A stretch of DNA of 55,692 nucleotides from a virus (lineage: Duplodnaviria > Caudoviricetes), in IMG/VR virus record IMGVR_UViG_3300035701_000039, positions 1 through 55,692 of that record; one strand, 5' to 3'. The notes under the pieces were generated by a model. The model did no database searches. It saw nothing but the letters and a program-made list of their open reading frames with translations, and was not told the origin of the DNA. Positions 2,826 to 26,720 of the stretch are shown piece by piece (position 1 is the stretch's first letter; each line of letters opens with the position of its first letter). Both the position numbers and the translations under genes were made by a program.

Positions 2826-3229
2826 CCGGCTACTATCGAATAAGACTTCCAAGTAGGGACGAACAATTCATTGATGGCACAATGTTAGATCCTAGTAATG
2901 GGGACATTATCCTTAGGGAAGACAAGGATGAGATTTCAGAAGAGGACATTGAAGAAGTACTTAATCATGAATTCATTCACTTGGCGATTGGGGATCTAGA
3001 GGGCTATCTGGTTTCAGGGGCGATTGACAGCATTTCCGGCTGGATCTGTCTACCCGGAGAGAAGGCGCATCTAGCATTCATCAGTGAAAAGTTGGTGATA
3101 TTTCAACTTCCCCTTCTGCCGACTCTTAATAGGCTGGCCTCGACCGCTTGGGATAAGGTTTATAGGCGGGTTGAGCTCTCTAACTACGGTCGTAAAGTTA
3201 ACAAAAGAGGGATGAGAAATGACAGATAA
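2822..3229 (+). CDS. HExxH metallopeptidase-like protein
   Basis: VLNHEFIHLAI motif. Confidence 0.55.
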   Translation: MTGYYRIRLPSRDEQFIDGTMLDPSNGDIILREDKDEISEEDIEEVLNHEFIHLAIGDLEGYLVSGAIDSISGWICLPGEKAHLAFISEKLVIFQLPLLPTLNRLASTAWDKVYRRVELSNYGRKVNKRGMRNDR

Positions 3230-4874
3230 GGAAGAAAGAGGAATACCGGAAGAATATGTCCGAGGACAAATCTTCCAGATCCGAAATACCGATAAGAGAA
3301 AAGAATTTGTCAAGAAGGAACTGGAGAAGAGCCAGAAGATCAACGGTAAAGACGTCGAATTCTTTAGGGACGACGTTGGTTTCGTCCTCTTAGAGAAGGA
3401 GGCCAAGATCAGGTACAATACCGCCATGGTCCAAAGGGCCTTATCCGTCGCCGTCTTGAGTGGGAAGGCACCGAGAGAACTTAGGGAATTCTACTATACC
3501 CTGAGGACGACTCCGGAACTGGTTAAGCCCTTCGCCACCGGTAATGACGATGCAATCTATCCCCTGACCCTAAGAGCCATTTGTGACTTAGAGATCCTAT
3601 GCGACATTAACCGGGACCAGTTCACGATGGGCAACCTGAGCAAGGGGTTCATTTACTACTTCCATTCTCCGATCTTTGGTCAGAAGGAGAGGAAGATCAC
3701 CTTCACGGAAGTCATAGCCAGAAGCATCATGAAACCGGAGAAGGAAGAGGAGTGGCAGTGCGGGAACTGTGAGAACATCATCGTGGTGGAGAAGAACGCT
3801 GCAGCCCTGAGGATGGTAGAACTAGGTCTATCCGAATTCACCAACTCGATCATAGTGACAGTGGGTGGCAATTTCAACCGTGCCATTTGGGAACTGGCTT
3901 CTAGGTTCAAGGATTCCAAGAACATGATCTTCATGGCGGACGCTGACGCCTACGGGGTTGACATGCTCAGGACGATCCAAGCCGGGACTGAATCATCAAG
4001 ACACCTATCGTACAAATTCCCACCGTCCAGATACCCTAAGGTTTACTTGGCCGGCTTTTTCCCCTCGATCGGGGAAAGTCTAGGGCTACCAAACGACGTT
4101 GAGCAGAAGAGGCCCTTACAGAATCCATTCGTTAAGCAGAGGGTCAACTTCCTAATGAACCATGGCCTGTTAGACCAGAGGGACTATGACACTTGGGCGC
4201 GGGACAAGACCTATGAACTGGAATCTCTCTCGGCGGGATTTGAGAACGAGAAGGGTGAACCAATAGGTCTAGGCATTTATATTGTCGAATATATGAGGAT
4301 GTTCAATATCCCGGTTAAGCCTCCAATGCCTCCAGATGACCAGTTGAAGAAGGACTTTGACGAGGCGGCAAGGAAGGAACTGCAGAGGGAAATAGACGAG
4401 AAGATTGCCTATCCAAAATTCTTCTGGTCCTATTACAACTGGCTCACCGCTCTCAAGGAAGAACTGAAGACTAAGATCTACGACTCCCTACTCCCGAAGT
4501 ATGAAGAGGCCCTAGCCCAAATCGGACCGAAAGAAATCAAGTTTCATATCTGGAAGCAATTCGAAGAGGATCCTAAGCGGGCAAGCTACGACCTAGCCGC
4601 AATCGCCCATAAGATCAAGACCAAGTTCGACATAATCATTGACTGGGCACTGGAAAAGTTTGAGGAAGCTCTAGACGAGGCCAAGGAAGATTATGAGGGT
4701 CCGGAACCAAGGACTGACACGGAATTTACGCCAATCCACAATGAGGTTAACTATGATCCCAACGGATATGATCTAGTCTTGAAGAGGATCGGGGCGAAAG
4801 ATGAGGACGTCGTGAAGGTAAGACAGGCGTTATTGACGAGGTTCATTGATGATCCTCGGTTACGGAAGGATTGA
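3219..4874 (+). CDS. DNA topoisomerase VI subunit A / Spo11-like protein with C-terminal extension
   Basis: REFYY catalytic-Tyr motif, VVEK, TVGGN, Toprim DADAYG, ELESL. Confidence 0.9.
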   Translation: MTDKEERGIPEEYVRGQIFQIRNTDKRKEFVKKELEKSQKINGKDVEFFRDDVGFVLLEKEAKIRYNTAMVQRALSVAVLSGKAPRELREFYYTLRTTPELVKPFATGNDDAIYPLTLRAICDLEILCDINRDQFTMGNLSKGFIYYFHSPIFGQKERKITFTEVIARSIMKPEKEEEWQCGNCENIIVVEKNAAALRMVELGLSEFTNSIIVTVGGNFNRAIWELASRFKDSKNMIFMADADAYGVDMLRTIQAGTESSRHLSYKFPPSRYPKVYLAGFFPSIGESLGLPNDVEQKRPLQNPFVKQRVNFLMNHGLLDQRDYDTWARDKTYELESLSAGFENEKGEPIGLGIYIVEYMRMFNIPVKPPMPPDDQLKKDFDEAARKELQREIDEKIAYPKFFWSYYNWLTALKEELKTKIYDSLLPKYEEALAQIGPKEIKFHIWKQFEEDPKRASYDLAAIAHKIKTKFDIIIDWALEKFEEALDEAKEDYEGPEPRTDTEFTPIHNEVNYDPNGYDLVLKRIGAKDEDVVKVRQALLTRFIDDPRLRKD

Positions 4875-9552: not shown

Positions 9553-10060
9553 CAAACAGATTTTGGACCTAATAGCATCTGGGGACATTAAGATAGAACC
9601 ATTCGATAGGAAAAGACTGGGGCCAGTAAGTTACGACCTGACCACTGAAAGCATAGAACCGGGTTTCAGAGGGGTCTATAAACTAGTTTCAAAAGAGCGA
9701 ATTAGACTGTCGAATAAGGTCGTGGGGTTAGTATGCATGAGGTCTAGGACAACCCTTCAGGGCTGGTTCGGTTCCTTTAGCGCTTTAGTCGATCCCGGTT
9801 ATTGTGGTAACTTGATTTTTCTAGTCTATAAACCTGCTCTTATCGCCGTTTCTTCGATCGGGGAAATGAACGATATGTTTCAGATTATGTTCTTCAAGGT
9901 CGGGGATGTGGAGCAGGCTTATAACGAGAGGGAGTTGAGCACGGCCATGAATAGGAAAGGTTGGTCTCCGTGGTTGAGAGAAGCCGTAGACACTTTACCT
10001 CCAGATGAAGAGAAGGAATCAGGTCTTGAAACAGAGGTCCAAGAGAATCCTGTCATATAG
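9530..10060 (+). CDS. dcd: dCTP deaminase / dUTPase-fold protein
   Basis: LLSDKQI, IEPF, PVSYDL, RS, VDPGYxGNL, QIMF. Confidence 0.88.
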   Translation: MKLKLLSDKQILDLIASGDIKIEPFDRKRLGPVSYDLTTESIEPGFRGVYKLVSKERIRLSNKVVGLVCMRSRTTLQGWFGSFSALVDPGYCGNLIFLVYKPALIAVSSIGEMNDMFQIMFFKVGDVEQAYNERELSTAMNRKGWSPWLREAVDTLPPDEEKESGLETEVQENPVI

Positions 10061-10199
10061 GATCTTATCTATTGTGTCTGAATTCCTTATCGTCTATCTA
10101 GTCACAGGTTCAATTGTGATTCCTACCATCACTACTCCCGCCTGCATATTCATTCATACCGGTCTTCATTATCTTATTGAAAGGATCTGGAAAGATTGA
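10005..10199 (+). CDS. Small membrane protein (DUF2061-like)
   Basis: RSxKRILSYRILS...YLVTGS...HYLIERIW pattern; two hydrophobic segments. Confidence 0.6.
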   Translation: MKRRNQVLKQRSKRILSYRILSIVSEFLIVYLVTGSIVIPTITTPACIFIHTGLHYLIERIWKD

Positions 10200-11680
10200 A
10201 CGAAATAGAAGGGATTAGGATTAAGCTTGGAAATGCCAAGAATATTTTTGACGTCATGGACTGTTGCAAGGATTGGAGAGAAATTTTAAGTCTCAGGATC
10301 AAGTCCACTCTTAGACCCTACCAATTACCTCTCTCTGACAAGATGATAGAATATGTCATTTCAGAAGGGATAATCGGGAATGAAATCAGCAGCCTCTGGT
10401 CCAGACAAAGTGGGAAGACTGAAACCGTCGCCTTCACGAGTTTAGTCTTAGGGACCTTCCATAACCTATTCCTAGGAGAGGATTTCGGTTGTGGCCTCTT
10501 TGCCCCGGTTGAAAGCATGATCACTCACGTCACGAGGAACAGGGTTAGACAGAAGTACAAGATGATTAAACACTGGCTGGAAAGGGACGCCCATATAATT
10601 CAAACTGCCGGAGAAGGATATACCGCTGCAACCTTCACCCTTCTGAATCTGGTCAACAACAAGGAATTAACCATAAGGTCTCTATCTGCTGGAGAATCAG
10701 CCTCGATCATTGGTGAAACCTTTAACCTCTTGGTAATTGAACAGTCAGAAATTGTTGACGCCCTCAAACTGAAGACAGACATATTTCCTATGGGAGCAGC
10801 GAAGGGAGGAGTAAGAATAATGACCGGGACAACCTCACCCTACTTTAGGAATGAGTATTTCAGGGAGGCTATTGAGAAGTGGAATAAAGATCCTAAACTG
10901 AACAAGTCCACTTCCGACTTCGTAGAGATGATAGACTGGAAAGAAGCGGCTAAAGTCTGTCCGGCGTATGCCCGTTATGTAAAGAGGGAAAGGGATAAAC
11001 TAGGGGAAGACTCAATAGAATTCAAGACCCAATACGGTTTAGAATGGGTAGGAGTAGCTCTTAAGTTCGTTGCTTGGGAAACCTTAGCCGTTCTTGAGCA
11101 GGACTACCAAAGTCTCAAGGAGAGGTTAAGGTTCTTTGCTGTGGATCCGGCTAGAGCAGGGGACTCGACGGTTGTTACAGTCATAGAACTAGACGGGGCG
11201 TCTATCCATATACTGGGCTGGTTAGAATTGGAAGGTCTAGACTTTGAGACCCATCAGGTCCCTACTATAGTTGAGTGGTTAAAGCAGTATGACCCTCTCA
11301 GGTACGGATTAGTAGATATTGCCGGTCTAGGTCGTCCCGTCTATGATATGTTGAAGAAAAGACTGTGGCCATGGGCTAGACTAGATTCTTATTATCCATC
11401 TGCATCGGGGAATGATGAGGTATTTAAGGCAATGGATCGGGAATTTGCTCATAAGAGAATCTTCTATCCCAAGACGGTGGCTGACGACCAGAAGAAGAAC
11501 AAGGCCAAATTCATCGAGCAGATGTTGGATCTGGAGAGGAAATATACTGGGTTCAGCCTCAAACTTTCAGCCCCTCATATCAAGGGAAGGCATGACGACT
11601 ACCCATGCAGTTTAGCGATGGCTGTATATGCATTGAAGGAGAAAGCGTTTAAGCCGGGTGTTTCCTATGTTGAACTTTAG
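10196..11680 (+). CDS. terL: Terminase large subunit
   Basis: LRPYQ, SRQSGKT Walker A, LLVIEQSE Walker B variant, TGT, AVDPARAGD and HDDYPCSLA nuclease motifs. Confidence 0.93.
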   Translation: MNEIEGIRIKLGNAKNIFDVMDCCKDWREILSLRIKSTLRPYQLPLSDKMIEYVISEGIIGNEISSLWSRQSGKTETVAFTSLVLGTFHNLFLGEDFGCGLFAPVESMITHVTRNRVRQKYKMIKHWLERDAHIIQTAGEGYTAATFTLLNLVNNKELTIRSLSAGESASIIGETFNLLVIEQSEIVDALKLKTDIFPMGAAKGGVRIMTGTTSPYFRNEYFREAIEKWNKDPKLNKSTSDFVEMIDWKEAAKVCPAYARYVKRERDKLGEDSIEFKTQYGLEWVGVALKFVAWETLAVLEQDYQSLKERLRFFAVDPARAGDSTVVTVIELDGASIHILGWLELEGLDFETHQVPTIVEWLKQYDPLRYGLVDIAGLGRPVYDMLKKRLWPWARLDSYYPSASGNDEVFKAMDREFAHKRIFYPKTVADDQKKNKAKFIEQMLDLERKYTGFSLKLSAPHIKGRHDDYPCSLAMAVYALKEKAFKPGVSYVEL

Positions 11681-11737
11681 AATAGTTCATCCTTTCATCT
11701 TTTTAATGCAGTTATCCTTCTTATGGCCTGTTTCATT

Positions 11738-11752
11738 AAAAACATTTAAATA
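11738..11752 (+). promoter_or_regulatory. BRE/TATA promoter for the structured RNA
   Basis: AAAAACA-TTTAAATA at 11745-11752; canonical spacing puts the start site at about G11776. Confidence 0.7.
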
Positions 11753-11774
11753 GAAGATCAGCGCTTATATCTAA

Positions 11775-11911
11775 TGCCGATACCGAACCTTACCGTGACA
11801 AACCACATTGTCGCGGAGATAGGGCGCTACTCTTGTGGAAAGGTCTTTGAACAAAGACTGGGAGTGTGTGATACTGTCCCCACGTTCACGGGATAAGCAA
11901 TCGGGTCGGTA
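11775..11911 (+). ncRNA. Predicted ~136-nt structured RNA (four-way junction with complementary loop and bulge)
   Basis: Ends pair (UGCCGAU-A-CCGA / UCGG-GUCGGUA); 9-bp hairpin 11793-11816; long arm 11818-11878; own promoter and T-tract. Confidence 0.7.
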
Positions 11912-11914
11912 AAC

Positions 11915-11922
11915 TATTTTTT
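11915..11922 (+). terminator. Oligo-T terminator
   Basis: TATTTTTT directly after the closing stem. Confidence 0.6.
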
Positions 11923-11930
11923 ATAGCTAG

Positions 11931-11944
11931 TTCAAGTTTAAATA
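11931..11944 (+). promoter_or_regulatory. TATA promoter for the protease/portal operon
   Basis: TTCAAG-TTTAAATA; the same core occurs at 11745 and 40038. Confidence 0.65.
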
Positions 11945-11968
11945 TTTCCGACCGCTCTATCTTCTTAG

Positions 11969-12853
11969 GTGATTAATGTGCCTCCTATTCGTTATAGTGA
12001 AGAGGAAAGAGCGAAGCAGCACGCAGAAATTTTATGGCCGACAGTCCGGATACACACAGAGAAGGCTTGGGGATCAGGGACCATCGTCTATTCTGAAGTG
12101 AACGCTAAAGGGGAATTCGTCTCTTATGTTTTGACCTGCCATCACGTCATTGCCGACAATATCAAGATCGAGAAGAAATTCGATCATAGGGTCGGATATG
12201 ACATCAAGAAGGAGATTAGAATACCGGTAGAGATAGAATTCTTCTATTACGAGAAAATGTCCAGATGTATGGGCATAGCTGGATCCTGCAAGGCTGATAT
12301 AGTCGCTTATGACGAAGATGGTGACATTGCTCTCTTAGAATTCAAAAAGACGTCTAAGACCCAACCTGTAGCAACCTTATTCCCGAAGAATCGGGAAGAT
12401 GAAGTTCATGTCTTCGACGAGGTATGGGCCTGCGGTGCAGCATTAGCCCACGAACCTATAGCCACTAAGGGTATCATAAACTTCATGAATGAAATCCTCG
12501 AGAATGGTGTCGAATACTGGATGAGCAGCGCCCAGATCATTTTCGGCAATTCCGGAGGATCCCTATTCAGGTATAGCGAGGAAAGAGACAAGTATGAATT
12601 CCTAGGCATGCCTGCCCGTATAAGCATCTCCATGTCCGGCTTCAGTGCTGATCCTATAACCCACATGGGGTTCTTTGTCCCCATAACTAGAATCTATGAA
12701 TTCTTGGACAACCATTTCTTCCAGTACATATACGACAAGAACGAGACGTTTGAGACCTGCAAGAAGAAGATGGAAGACTTCAAGAAGGAACAAGAGAAGC
12801 TATTACTAGCCAAATTCGGCGGTTCTCCAGAGCAGGACAAGAGGGAGAAATAG
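11969..12853 (+). CDS. Trypsin-like serine protease
   Basis: GSGT, LTCHHV (His), DIALL (Asp), GNSGG (Ser). Confidence 0.92.
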   Translation: MINVPPIRYSEEERAKQHAEILWPTVRIHTEKAWGSGTIVYSEVNAKGEFVSYVLTCHHVIADNIKIEKKFDHRVGYDIKKEIRIPVEIEFFYYEKMSRCMGIAGSCKADIVAYDEDGDIALLEFKKTSKTQPVATLFPKNREDEVHVFDEVWACGAALAHEPIATKGIINFMNEILENGVEYWMSSAQIIFGNSGGSLFRYSEERDKYEFLGMPARISISMSGFSADPITHMGFFVPITRIYEFLDNHFFQYIYDKNETFETCKKKMEDFKKEQEKLLLAKFGGSPEQDKREK

Positions 12854-13075: not shown

Positions 13076-15622
13076 ATGCCAAGAGCAAAAATAGCGAAGA
13101 ACCAGCCGAAGATACCCTCTTTTTCTAGGAGGGAGAAGGCATTAGCGGTTCTAGGAAGATTAGTCGGCGTAAAGCTGGAGAAGACTACTCCAGTCCAACC
13201 AACTTTTGTCTTTGAACCAGAACCTCAGATCAGATACCCTGTTTATGATTACATCAATCTATTTGAGGTAGCCACTACTTCATGGCCGCTCAGACGGGCA
13301 TTCCGGGCGATCATTCAGGAATGCATAAGGAACCGTTGGACGATCAAACCGGCCTTTAAGTGGAAGTGTGACAAATGTGGCAAGACGTATGACCACACCC
13401 CGAATGAGAATCAGTTGAAGGAAGGGGAAAAACCGAAGTGCGAGGCTAATGGGTGTGGTGCTGAATTAAGACAACCATCCGAAGATCAGGCTAGGATTCT
13501 AGAACGTCTTCTTAAGAGACCGAATGGGGACTACCATTTCGATGACTTTGTTAAGTCATCTATATTCTACGACTTGTCCTTAGACGACTGGTACTGGGGC
13601 ATGTCCTTCAAGCGGGTTCCTAAGACTGAAGGCGGCAAGGTAGTCGTTCAGGAGAAGAAGGTAGTCTACGAGAAGGTCCCTAAAGAAATATTCGTTGAGG
13701 ATGCAAGGTTCATCTTCCCAGTAGCAGACGAATTCGGACACCTAGGCGGTTACGAATGGTTCTGTTCAGAATGTTATGATAAACAGCCCGGGGATCAGCC
13801 GGTAGTTGCTATCAGACAAGACATGAGTCTAGCAGATCGACAAAAGGCTATAATCTGTCCTCTCTGTGGGGAAGTAATGGAACAGACGGCCTACGTTCAG
13901 GAAATAGGCGGGATGGTGACGGCAAGGTTCACCAAGAACGAACTTATTCATGGGTCCAGTTCCAGAGTAGCACCTGCCCTCTTTGGGAATTCTAAGATCG
14001 TAAGCGTATGGAAGCTAGTTCAAACGGTCTTAGCCATGGACGATTATAATTGGGAAGTCTACAGCACCGGAAAGGTTGGAAGCATCATTGGCTTTCCGGG
14101 AGAGGACCAGTTAGAAGTCGACGAGAAGAAGAAGGCCATAGAAGAGGAAATCAAGGCCCTTGACGCTAAAGACATTCAGAGTGGAAGGTACAAGTCTTCT
14201 AAGAAGATAAGGACCCTAATGCTCGGTCTCAAGAAGGACCAGCAACCGATCAGGATTCCTATCATGGAAGACATGAAGGCGATGCAGTCGATCGAATTCT
14301 ACAGGCTCTACATGGAAGCAATTGCCGGAATATATGGGGTTACACCTGAATTCGTGAGCACAACGGACGTGGCCGGAGGAGGGATAAAACTCAAGATTGA
14401 TGTTCAGAACAGGACGACTCAGGAGCATCAGGCTGGATTTGCGGATCTATTTAACGACGACCTACTCCCCAAGTTCGGGATAACCGACTGGTTGTTCATC
14501 TTCAATCCGATAGAGGGAAGGGACCAATTAAGGGACTCTCAGACCGAACACACTAAGGCTGCTACCGCCATGACTTGGGCTCAGGCTGGGTTCAATGTAA
14601 GTCTAGGACCCGGAAGAGAATTGATCGTCACTGGAAAAGCGAACATACCTAGGGTTCAAGAACCTTCTAGGGCGGGTGAAGCACCTCGTTTCATGGAAGG
14701 CAAACCTGAATTCTGGCAGGGAGGAGAACCCACTAGGACAGGCGGCGAACGACTAGAATTGGGTGAGAAACCCACGGTTGAAGGGATGGGTGAGGGTGAA
14801 GTCCGTCTACCCATTTCTTGGTATTCAGCTTCTCAGATACGGATATGGGACCGGGTCTATGCTCTCAACAATGACAAAGATGAAGTCTATGTCGTGGTTA
14901 ACAATCATGAAGTGCAAGGGACTAGAACTTCGGCTACTAATCTTAACTACGCTGTAGCTTACCTTCTCGATAACGTTCTGGAATACATTAGCTCAAAACT
15001 AGCTGGAAAAGTGGGATTTAACGAAGATGACTTTAAGTCCGGGCAAAAGAAGATCGTGACTGGCTTTCGAAGGAAATTTGAGCCAGAACTTTTGATAAAC
15101 CTAGCTAGTTACTTAGATTCAATCGGCATGGAAGCCCTTGGTGAAAAGATTGATAGTCTGAGGATGAGACTAGAACAGATCAAGCCCAAGAAACTAGAGA
15201 TTCAGGGAGAACCGAGTACGGAAACGGCGTCTGGAGAAATGTTGGAACCGATATTTGAACAGAAGTCTATTCTTCAGGCTCGTGCTCCTTTCGGGGTTTC
15301 ATGGCAGGAGGAAACATTGTTCAAAGCTTTCAAGTCGATAATCAAATGGGCGCAGGATGAGGTTAAGAAGGGGAAGAACAAGGAAAAGGTGACGCACGAG
15401 GCCCTAATCAAGGCTCAACATACTTTGGACTCATCCTATGAGGAACTGGTTAAGCGGGCAATTGAGCATGCCAAGAAGAGGACGAAGAAGATCGTAAATC
15501 TTTCGCCCGATGAATTGAGAAGGATCAACGCCTATAAAGAAAACAGTCTCAACGATTTTGATAGGATCCTAAGAGATTCTCTAAAGGAGACGAAGAAGAA
15601 TGACGGAGAAAACATTGAGTAA
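13076..15622 (+). CDS. Portal protein with two Zn-ribbon insertions and a long C-terminal extension
   Basis: Position after terminase; LLKRPN, IAGIYGVTPEFV and FNDDLLPKFGI portal-like segments; CDKC/CxxxxC and CSEC/CPLC. Confidence 0.85.
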   Translation: MPRAKIAKNQPKIPSFSRREKALAVLGRLVGVKLEKTTPVQPTFVFEPEPQIRYPVYDYINLFEVATTSWPLRRAFRAIIQECIRNRWTIKPAFKWKCDKCGKTYDHTPNENQLKEGEKPKCEANGCGAELRQPSEDQARILERLLKRPNGDYHFDDFVKSSIFYDLSLDDWYWGMSFKRVPKTEGGKVVVQEKKVVYEKVPKEIFVEDARFIFPVADEFGHLGGYEWFCSECYDKQPGDQPVVAIRQDMSLADRQKAIICPLCGEVMEQTAYVQEIGGMVTARFTKNELIHGSSSRVAPALFGNSKIVSVWKLVQTVLAMDDYNWEVYSTGKVGSIIGFPGEDQLEVDEKKKAIEEEIKALDAKDIQSGRYKSSKKIRTLMLGLKKDQQPIRIPIMEDMKAMQSIEFYRLYMEAIAGIYGVTPEFVSTTDVAGGGIKLKIDVQNRTTQEHQAGFADLFNDDLLPKFGITDWLFIFNPIEGRDQLRDSQTEHTKAATAMTWAQAGFNVSLGPGRELIVTGKANIPRVQEPSRAGEAPRFMEGKPEFWQGGEPTRTGGERLELGEKPTVEGMGEGEVRLPISWYSASQIRIWDRVYALNNDKDEVYVVVNNHEVQGTRTSATNLNYAVAYLLDNVLEYISSKLAGKVGFNEDDFKSGQKKIVTGFRRKFEPELLINLASYLDSIGMEALGEKIDSLRMRLEQIKPKKLEIQGEPSTETASGEMLEPIFEQKSILQARAPFGVSWQEETLFKAFKSIIKWAQDEVKKGKNKEKVTHEALIKAQHTLDSSYEELVKRAIEHAKKRTKKIVNLSPDELRRINAYKENSLNDFDRILRDSLKETKKNDGENIE

Positions 15623-25451: not shown

Positions 25452-26720
25452 ATGTTCGGACAGTCTATGTATTCGTACAACACAGGGAGTACAATGTCAG
25501 AACTAAATGGATGTCCAGACACCCTTCTCAATTCTGAGTTGGAAATATACAAACATCCATTGGTTCAATCCCTGTTAGATGCCCTTCCCCAACCTCTTAC
25601 TCGCACTCCTTGGTCATTCACTTTTCCCATTTCTAAGAAGATGGAAGAAGAAGGAAAAATCATTATCGCTGGTTATGCTTCCGTAGAGGTCATTGACAGC
25701 CAGAACGAACTTATACCCATACCGGTTCTAAAGGAGGCTTGGGTAAAGTTCAAGGCTAATAAGTATTTTGCTACTGGGTCACTCATGCATTCTAACATTC
25801 CTGTCATTAGGATCCTAGACGAGTACAAAGATTCTAAGGGTCAGGTCTGGAAGAGTGAAGTCGACGACACCGGTCTCTTTATCGTGGCCGAAGTCAGGAA
25901 CGATATCGAGAAGGGGTTGCAGACGATTGAACTTATCAAGGATAATAAACTTACCGGGTTCAGTATAGGAGGGGAAGCCCTAGCTTCTTCTATCATCTGT
26001 GAAGGGAAATGCTACACTAGGATAGACAAGATGGAATTACACGAAATAGCGGTTGTGGACCGTCCGGCAAATCAACCTTCCGTCTTTACCATAGTCAAGT
26101 CGGATAGGTTGAGAAAATTGGCGGAATTGACTGAAGCCCTTCCTGATCTAATCATCAGTCCGGGAGTAGCCAAGGTCGCAGGTTCAGTAGCCGAATTAGG
26201 AGAAGGTCACGATTTCGACCTGATCATAACCGCTTCTGAAGGTTCATTTGTTGACCGGGCAATTCAAACCCGGATTTTTAATGAGCTGAGAAGAAAAGGG
26301 AAAGAAGACCTTTGGAAGAGTCTACATGTCATTCACGAACCGGAAGGTCTAGGACCCTTTACCGATCACTATGACCTGTTCGATCTTGTCCTGTTAAGGT
26401 CTACTCCCCATAAAAGGGACATGACCTACACCGGAGGGGAAAAGACTAAGAACTCCCTCAAGGACAAACTCGTAGAGGAATTCAAACTTAATCCGGGTCA
26501 AGCTGGTTTATTGATCAACTGGCTTGGCGATGCCGCTAAGAAATTAGTGGCTGTTGGGACAAAGAAGGAAAAATTCGAGTGTCCCATTCTAGTCTCAGTA
26601 GAGAAACTAGATGAGGCAATAGACAAGGCCAATTCAAGTAGGATAATGAGAAAATCCATATCTCATCTTGATGAGGCAATTTCAAAGTTATCTCTTAACC
26701 GAGAAACTATAACCTCGTAA
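25452..26720 (+). CDS. HK97-type prohead protease fused to a Pol-beta-superfamily nucleotidyltransferase-like domain
   Basis: IAGYASVEVIDSQNE, LMH, GFSIGG, EIAVVDRPAN; then VAGSVAELGEGHDFDLII. Confidence 0.88.
   Translation: MFGQSMYSYNTGSTMSELNGCPDTLLNSELEIYKHPLVQSLLDALPQPLTRTPWSFTFPISKKMEEEGKIIIAGYASVEVIDSQNELIPIPVLKEAWVKFKANKYFATGSLMHSNIPVIRILDEYKDSKGQVWKSEVDDTGLFIVAEVRNDIEKGLQTIELIKDNKLTGFSIGGEALASSIICEGKCYTRIDKMELHEIAVVDRPANQPSVFTIVKSDRLRKLAELTEALPDLIISPGVAKVAGSVAELGEGHDFDLIITASEGSFVDRAIQTRIFNELRRKGKEDLWKSLHVIHEPEGLGPFTDHYDLFDLVLLRSTPHKRDMTYTGGEKTKNSLKDKLVEEFKLNPGQAGLLINWLGDAAKKLVAVGTKKEKFECPILVSVEKLDEAIDKANSSRIMRKSISHLDEAISKLSLNRETITS

Follow-up and report, generated by a model that had tools for sequence, protein, structure and literature searches.

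A structured non-coding RNA with a covarying loop-bulge contact on a putative moron-like cassette of a probably archaeal virus

The window, by which we mean the whole stretch of 55,692 bp that was analyzed, is a complete virus record with direct terminal repeats. A 288-nt gap separates its large terminase gene (terL) from a peptidase gene, and the sequence at 11776-11910 within this gap is, judged by the substitutions found among its relatives, a genuine structured non-coding RNA. We consider it probable, with moderate confidence, that this RNA is an accessory factor which acts in trans, is carried by a mobile, moron-like cassette, is locked within one molecule and binds a protein, and that it does not belong to the core of the packaging motor.

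Relatives, fold and coding potential

Relatives were sought by a TerL search of viral contigs, which gave nine loci, and by scanning collections of viral, metagenome and genome sequences for patterns; two covariance models (R1, R2) were also made. The RNA family found has four lineages with full-length sequences, plus a single half copy. The window-type lineage includes the window, L002 and L004, and the L005-type lineage includes L005 and L009 (TerL ~85% identical, RNA ~85% identical). The third lineage, L134, was found in the 91-kb virus G003, whose genome is complete and carries terminal repeats; the window TerL has no match there. The fourth, L202, is a 2-kb contig that scored 62.4 bits with R1 (E 8.6e-14). 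The half copy, L171, consists of the 3' half only, cut by the contig end; it came from the metagenome scan, which otherwise returned the same contigs again.

A first scan of genome contigs found no copy, and L202 was the sole true match among the 39 stretches returned by a second one. Chance matches only were obtained when viral contigs were scanned with 14-mers, blastn over the 130 collected loci gave the known copies only, the contigs of four sequencing runs held no further full-length variant, and nothing similar to the RNA was found by blastn among GenBank phages. Several candidates were rejected: the match to the pattern ATAAGCNATCGGGTCGG was a coding gene of unrelated phages, L135 and L136 were chance matches, and L221, the sole return of the last viral scan, was a chance hairpin.

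The coordinates of the RNA, its neighbours and the corresponding slots in relatives are listed in Table 1.

Table 1. Positions of features in the window and of the slot behind terL in related loci.
Feature	Sequence	Coordinates	Strand	Remarks
Large terminase subunit (terL)	window	10196-11680	+	phrog_2, E 1.8e-13; Terminase_6C, E 0.0038; left flank, outside the RNA
Archaeal-type TATA box TTTAAATA	window	11745-11752	+	23 nt upstream of P1
Unit that some relatives have and others lack (promoter, RNA, terminator)	window	11747-11924	+	
ORF, 40 aa	window	11774-11896	+	overlaps the RNA; ATG at about the predicted transcription start
Structured ncRNA, four-way junction P1-P4, ~135 nt	window	11776-11910	+	RNAalifold, pair counts, covariance model, z-score
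P1, 5' strand	window	11776-11785	+	pairs with 11902-11910; A11782 bulged; nine pairs
P2 arm	window	11788-11824	+	P2a 11788-11792/11820-11824; AGA bulge 11817-11819
P2b, 9-bp hairpin	window	11793-11801/11808-11816	+	loop ACCACA 11802-11807
Loop half of the tertiary pairing, CCACA	window	11803-11807	+	partner 11834-11838
P3 arm	window	11825-11870	+	P3a 11825-11833/11861-11870; bulge UGUGGAAA 11834-11841
Bulge half of the tertiary pairing, UGUGG	window	11834-11838	+	partner 11803-11807
P3b, 7-bp capping hairpin	window	11842-11859	+	GAAC loop
P4, short arm	window	11877-11893	+	GUUC loop
T6 run, likely archaeal poly-U terminator	window	11917-11922	+	from sequence only
Second TATA box	window	11937-11944	+	promoter of the downstream peptidase gene
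Trypsin-like peptidase	window	11969-12853	+	PF13365, E 4.1e-12; right flank of the RNA
Portal protein	window	13076-15622	+	phrog_18178, E 1.4e-17
S78 prohead protease	window	25452-26720		separate from the trypsin-like peptidase
Slot	window	11681-11968		RNA alone
Slot	L001	4486-4885		84-aa ORF only
Slot	L002			RNA alone
Slot	L003 (TerL 98%)	3507-3807		unrelated 98-aa ORF only
Slot	L004	4239-4815		84-aa ORF and RNA
Slot	L005	4483-5130		RNA and 116-aa ORF
Slot	L009	212-1295		HNH-like ORF (99 aa), RNA and 116-aa ORF

The fold had been drawn by hand in the initial annotation, with a closing stem, a four-way junction, a 9-bp hairpin, a long bulged arm capped by a 7-bp hairpin and a short further arm. 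All of these elements were found where they had been placed, and RNAalifold, which was run on the MAFFT alignment without structure input, gave the same junction. The window RNA reached a covariance-model score of 162 bits. Folded as a single sequence, 11776-11910 was more stable than all 200 dinucleotide shuffles. The z-scores of the four lineages were -3.51 (window), -3.31, -2.56 and -2.75, and in the same order 0, 0, 3 and 1 of 200 shuffles folded as well. The minimum-free-energy fold of the window departs from the four-way structure in P3 and P4, and for these arms the covariation supports the hand-drawn version over the minimum-energy fold.

Base pairs were counted in two alignments, and the counts have low statistical power because the lineages are few and, apart from L202, derive from sediment samples that are related. 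In A4, a MAFFT alignment with five distinct rows, 50 pairs were scored, those of the loop-bulge helix among them; 95.9% of the cells are paired and eight pairs change on both sides. With the 3' partners slid by 1-3 columns as a control, 36-47% of the cells were paired and 0-1 double-sided changes were seen. In A5, a model-fitted alignment which includes L202 (six rows, 45 nested pairs), 95.1% of the cells are paired and 9/45 pairs change on both sides, compared with 0-2 in the slid controls and with 1/500 shuffles that reaches nine; the A5 counts lean toward structure because the alignment was fitted to the model. The covariation among relatives on which the structure had been proposed to stand or fall was thus found, the base pairs being kept.

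The compensatory changes in A5 fall into P2b (five of nine pairs), P3a (three pairs) and P4 (one pair, where L134 has U-A in place of C-G). For the inner two pairs of P4, L005 and L134 have A-U and U-A, and the window-type lineage has A.C and C.A. P3b is nearly invariant in A5, and 8/9 pairs of P1 never vary, the closing pair being G-U, G-C or A.C; the invariance of P1 in L202 and of P3b in L134 is partly built in, because the search patterns required those sequences. Inspected by eye as a kink-turn and a T-loop, respectively, the AGA bulge of P2 and the P4 arm did not fit the consensus of these motifs, and both assignments were dropped.

ARAGORN found 0 tRNA or tmRNA genes in the window, and no gathering-level Rfam match was obtained in its whole length. 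With Rfam 15, nothing was hit over the RNA at E-values up to 10 in the window (11600-12050), L202 and L005, nor at E-values up to 1 over the L134 RNA. A known family of unrelated function, which had been named beforehand as one possible outcome, therefore did not turn up in any of the four lineages.

Small ribozymes are common in viral genomes, and a new self-cleaving or otherwise catalytic RNA would be in keeping with the compact fold, which has a tertiary contact and, at the junction, invariant nucleotides. No known ribozyme class was matched, however, the only hit being Pistol at E 3.4 upstream of the L005 RNA, and there is no indication of a cleavage site, so that we regard catalysis as highly improbable.

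The initial annotation had also offered an alternative in which the same DNA is a leaderless gene for a protein of 40 aa and the RNA fold is incidental. The frame is indeed open and ends at the same stop in the window-type lineage and in L005, and its ATG lies near the predicted transcription start. Nevertheless, the ATG is kept in only 2/4 lineages and is replaced by GTA in L134 and AAG in L202. Indels of +1 and -1 shift 17 codons in L005, L134 has a -1 indel only, and past residue 5 the peptide is shifted in L134 and unrelated in L202. In the unshifted C-terminal part, 5/7 substitutions between the window and L005 are non-synonymous (counted by hand). The tblastn similarity between lineages jumps across frames and strands, and the ORF has no PHROG match. 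Substitutions keep the base pairs and not the codons; with start codons lost and the frame broken as well, the peptide gene was ruled out as a candidate and its probability is close to nil. The homologs thus conserve the pairing and not the peptide, so the structured RNA stands.

The loop-bulge contact

The complementarity of CCACA in the P2 loop with UGUGG in the P3 bulge, noticed from the window alone, was confirmed and covaries across the four lineages: the window CCACA/UGUGG becomes CCACG/CGUGG in L005, CCAUG/CAUGG in L134 and CCGUUU/AAACGG in L202. The pairing has been rewritten three times, with five to six Watson-Crick pairs kept in 4/4 lineages. In A4, 100% of the cells of this helix are paired and 2/5 of its pairs change on both sides. 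The pairing segment of L202 lies inside a 17-nt loop, and a 6-bp run such as the one found there was reached in only 13/5000 composition-preserving loop shuffles. These comparisons are good evidence that the P2 loop and P3 bulge segments pair.

Covariation of this kind would be compatible with pairing within one molecule or between molecules. P2 and P3 abut without a linker; this could lead to coaxial stacking, which would hold the loop and the bulge far apart and favour intermolecular pairing. The RNA might then assemble with itself and have no motor role, the loop of one molecule pairing with the bulge of the next to give dimers, rings or larger assemblies in the manner of ROOL, GOLLD or manA. 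In line with this, the complementarity covaries in all four lineages, and precedent exists in that natural RNAs, among them phage-associated ones of <200 nt, form homo-oligomers, according to two sources (PMC12286853; bioRxiv 10.64898/2026.07.01.735769). Like the window RNA, ROOL, GOLLD and the manA motif are phage-borne structured RNAs with no assigned function whose self-complementary surfaces could drive homo-oligomers; their hosts are bacterial, whereas the window virus is probably archaeal. ROOL and GOLLD are several-fold larger than ~135 nt, and all three motifs are presumably among the Rfam models, none of which matched here.

Intramolecular pairing would produce the covariation just as readily, however, and loop-to-internal-loop contacts in junction RNAs are usually intramolecular. 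P2b and P3a are both ~9 bp long in the window and 8 and 8-9 bp long in L202, in which the shorter P2 goes with longer loop flanks; these near-equal lengths may hint at a distance constraint within one molecule. By a rough geometric consideration, intramolecular closure would be allowed, with P2b and P3a meeting at the contact and P2a together with the 3-nt bulge bridging the base. We therefore regard self-assembly of the kind outlined above as unlikely. The wider proposition that intermolecular loop-bulge pairing drives the assembly of a ring or cage, by an RNA on an exchanged mobile cassette, is rather unlikely; if true, it would be the first known case of an archaeal virus with an RNA-only quaternary assembly or a pRNA-like ring. 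The loop-bulge pairs most likely form within one molecule, and in the reading which we prefer the five pairs would lock the shape of the four-way junction. The RNA is short enough for a biophysical test of intra- versus intermolecular contact.

Transcription signals and the slot behind the terminase gene

The distance from the TATA box to P1 is exactly 23 nt in 4/4 full-length lineages, in which the spacer sequence differs. With archaeal promoter spacing, 23 nt would place the start at or beside the first P1 base, and the claim that the box is positioned for a start at the closing stem was borne out. As an 8-mer, TTTAAATA is not enriched in the window (five matches, 2.85 expected; 13/100 shuffles reach five). 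Of the T-tract described as following right after the stem, the presence held but the position did not, as the T6 run starts 6 nt past 11910 and not directly behind it. A T5-6 run is found 6-7 nt after P1 in 3/5 lineages (window type, L134 and L171), and in L005 and L202 the 45 nt behind P1 contain no T5 run. Neither a sigma-70 promoter nor a hairpin terminator was found at the RNA. The sequencing runs listed for this DNA included no RNA-seq run. For archaeal transcription, a poly-U stretch is described as sufficient for termination in PMC7289017. With a fixed TATA-P1 spacing in 4/4 lineages and a T-run in 3/5, the RNA looks separately transcribed, as the initial annotation had held, with the start and end predicted from these signals. 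Positions 11745-11922 would accordingly form one self-contained unit that leads from the TATA box through the ~135-nt RNA to a poly-T terminator.

A different arrangement would be a cis-acting leader or riboswitch-like aptamer which controls the downstream gene, i.e., the peptidase gene in the window and the 116-aa ORF in L005. L005 and L009 lack a T-run, and an ORF with a Shine-Dalgarno-like GAGGTG (by eye) follows ~40 nt downstream; the RNA in L005 could act as a leader. The SAM-I aptamer has a four-way junction in which a pseudoknot of the P2 hairpin loop packs neighbouring arms, and the window RNA recalls it in having a four-way junction with a P2-loop pseudoknot. In the window RNA, however, the partner is a bulge inside P3 and not J3/4, no P2 kink-turn is seen by eye, Rfam gave no match, and a terminator and a separate promoter follow in most lineages. 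A T5-6 run stands behind the copies of the window, L134 and L171, and in the window and L171 the downstream gene has a TATA box of its own; moreover, each lineage has a different gene downstream, these genes are without homology, and no riboswitch family was matched. Taken together, we hold a leader to be quite unlikely.

The unit of promoter, RNA and terminator is present in some viruses and missing from their close relatives. In L001, the TerL of which is 99% identical, similarity to the window covers 11690-11746 and 11925-11968 and nothing between. In a wetland contig from run X7, 11678 is joined to 11925 and the slot is empty; the X7 and L001 junctions show that the right-hand boundary at ~11925 recurs. 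No copy was found in the 42 kb of G001 (76% complete, TerL 99% identical), and a copy outside these 42 kb is possible. The right-hand junction, ~25 nt around the second TATA box, is conserved in every TerL-linked variant and may serve as a recombination point. From the contents of the slot (Table 1), the gap between terL and the next gene can be described as a cassette hot spot. The gene after the slot codes for the PF13365 trypsin-like peptidase in the window lineage and for a Clp protease (PF00574) in L005 and L009 (L009 1296-1886).

In G003, a single copy of the RNA is located at 56744-56883, 25 kb apart from the virus' own TerL gene, which is on the other strand (82005-83606). No protein gene is common to the neighbours of the RNA across the lineages, and the ORFs 3' of it in L009 and L134 are unrelated. 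The unit would therefore be one that occupies a swap slot after terL and has also moved into an unrelated virus. It combines its own promoter and terminator, both predicted, with a presence/absence polymorphism between conserved flanks, and is, on this comparison, a moron-like accessory cassette. Like phage morons, it has the order promoter-cargo-terminator between conserved genes, is present or absent in relatives and is common to unrelated viruses; it differs from them in that the cargo is a structured RNA and the signals are an archaeal TATA box and poly-T.

This distribution bears on the role in the packaging motor which had been suggested for the RNA. The unit is missing in a virus with a 99%-identical TerL and in the X7 contig, and the G003 copy is 25 kb away from TerL. 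An optional, mobile unit far from the packaging genes in G003 weakens a motor role, and the suggestion was not upheld. Its most specific form would be a ring like that of the phi29 pRNA, seated on the portal and serving as a terminase scaffold in place of the missing small terminase. The model RF00044, which we take to be the phi29 pRNA family, was not matched by the window RNA at gathering level or at E-values up to 10. Phi29-type viruses have a small protein-primed genome and a packaging ATPase that works with the pRNA, whereas the window virus has 55.7 kb, direct terminal repeats and a nuclease-bearing TerL and is probably archaeal. The resemblance is nonetheless considerable, since both RNAs are virus-encoded, about 120-170 nt long, separately transcribed (predicted for the window RNA) and built around a multi-helix junction, with Watson-Crick complementarity between a hairpin loop and a bulge loop, in the phi29 pRNA the CE and D loops (PMC5066667). 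The window RNA stands beside packaging genes, directly after terL, in two related lineages, and no TerS was recognized. Against such a ring, the slot has no RNA in L001, L003 and the X7 contig, none is found in the 42 kb of G001, and the copy in the complete virus G003 is remote from TerL. The core is a four-way junction, whereas that of the phi29 pRNA is three-way (helices A, C-E and D). According to PMC5066667, the pRNA is essential and unique to phi29-like phages, with a three-way junction and pairing of the CE and D loops; the window RNA, in contrast, is optional among near-identical viruses. A TerL with an RNaseH-like part, combined with terminal repeats, is unlike phi29-type motors. We consider a pRNA-like ring very unlikely and retain the accessory cassette as the preferred reading.

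Virus, probable host and possible role

The location between terminase and portal which had been given for the RNA is correct as far as the terminase is concerned; the next gene, however, codes for the peptidase, and the portal gene starts only at 13076, with a 71-aa ORF between the two. The TerL has a weak match to an RNaseH-like nuclease domain. The earlier observation that no small terminase is recognizable was reproduced: no TerS was found, and a DUF2061 ORF occupies the position expected for it. This ORF (10005-10199) overlaps the start of terL and matches DUF2061, a predicted membrane protein, with an E-value of 3e-07. The window also codes for a capsid protein of HK97 type and for a tail tube protein.

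The replication and repair genes of the window have an archaeal flavour and comprise a Rad51/RadA-type protein, a Topo VI-A/Spo11 Toprim protein, a family B polymerase and an ATP-dependent ligase. Because of these genes and the TATA-type promoters, and because the L202 contig was binned to an 'uncultured archaeon', an archaeal host is likely for the window virus. The genome to which the 2-kb contig was binned (G006) has 1.3 Mb, and the other genomes of its order have 0.5-1.2 Mb; the binning of so short a contig is weak evidence for the host of L202. A TerL search across this order gave one weak match, which is uninformative on the host. The RNA was found in 0/117 other genomes of the order and in 0/150 other sampled genomes of the phylum and is therefore not a conserved host gene.

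The genomic context and the pattern of conservation in P1, P3b and P4 suggest what the RNA on the cassette might do. The rigid fold and the invariant surfaces of P1, P3b and P4 would bind a host or viral protein in trans, and the RNA could serve as a decoy, sponge or cofactor in a virus-host conflict or in host takeover. The copy in G003 has ORFs of the YunG, DruA-like, DUF7685 and HNH-like kinds shortly upstream (L134 2790-4415; ~54.8-56.4 kb), DruA being a Druantia protein family; this accessory region of the 91-kb virus may be related to defence or anti-defence. On the 3' side of the RNA, at L134 4905-5092, GNRA-capped hairpins were seen by eye; the z-score of this stretch is -1.31 and it has no Rfam match, so that a second RNA is unsupported there.

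To our knowledge, hardly any structured non-coding RNA has been described for archaeal viruses, and a search of the archaeal-virus literature yielded no paper on such an RNA. If the preferred reading holds, archaeal tailed viruses would exchange RNA cargo through moron-like slots just as they do protein genes. The natural variants of near-identical viruses with and without the RNA are a ready genetic comparison. Window 2837-3112 and L134 (minus strand) have one protein in common (36% identity over 100 aa, E 2e-09), which fits gene exchange among viruses of one habitat.
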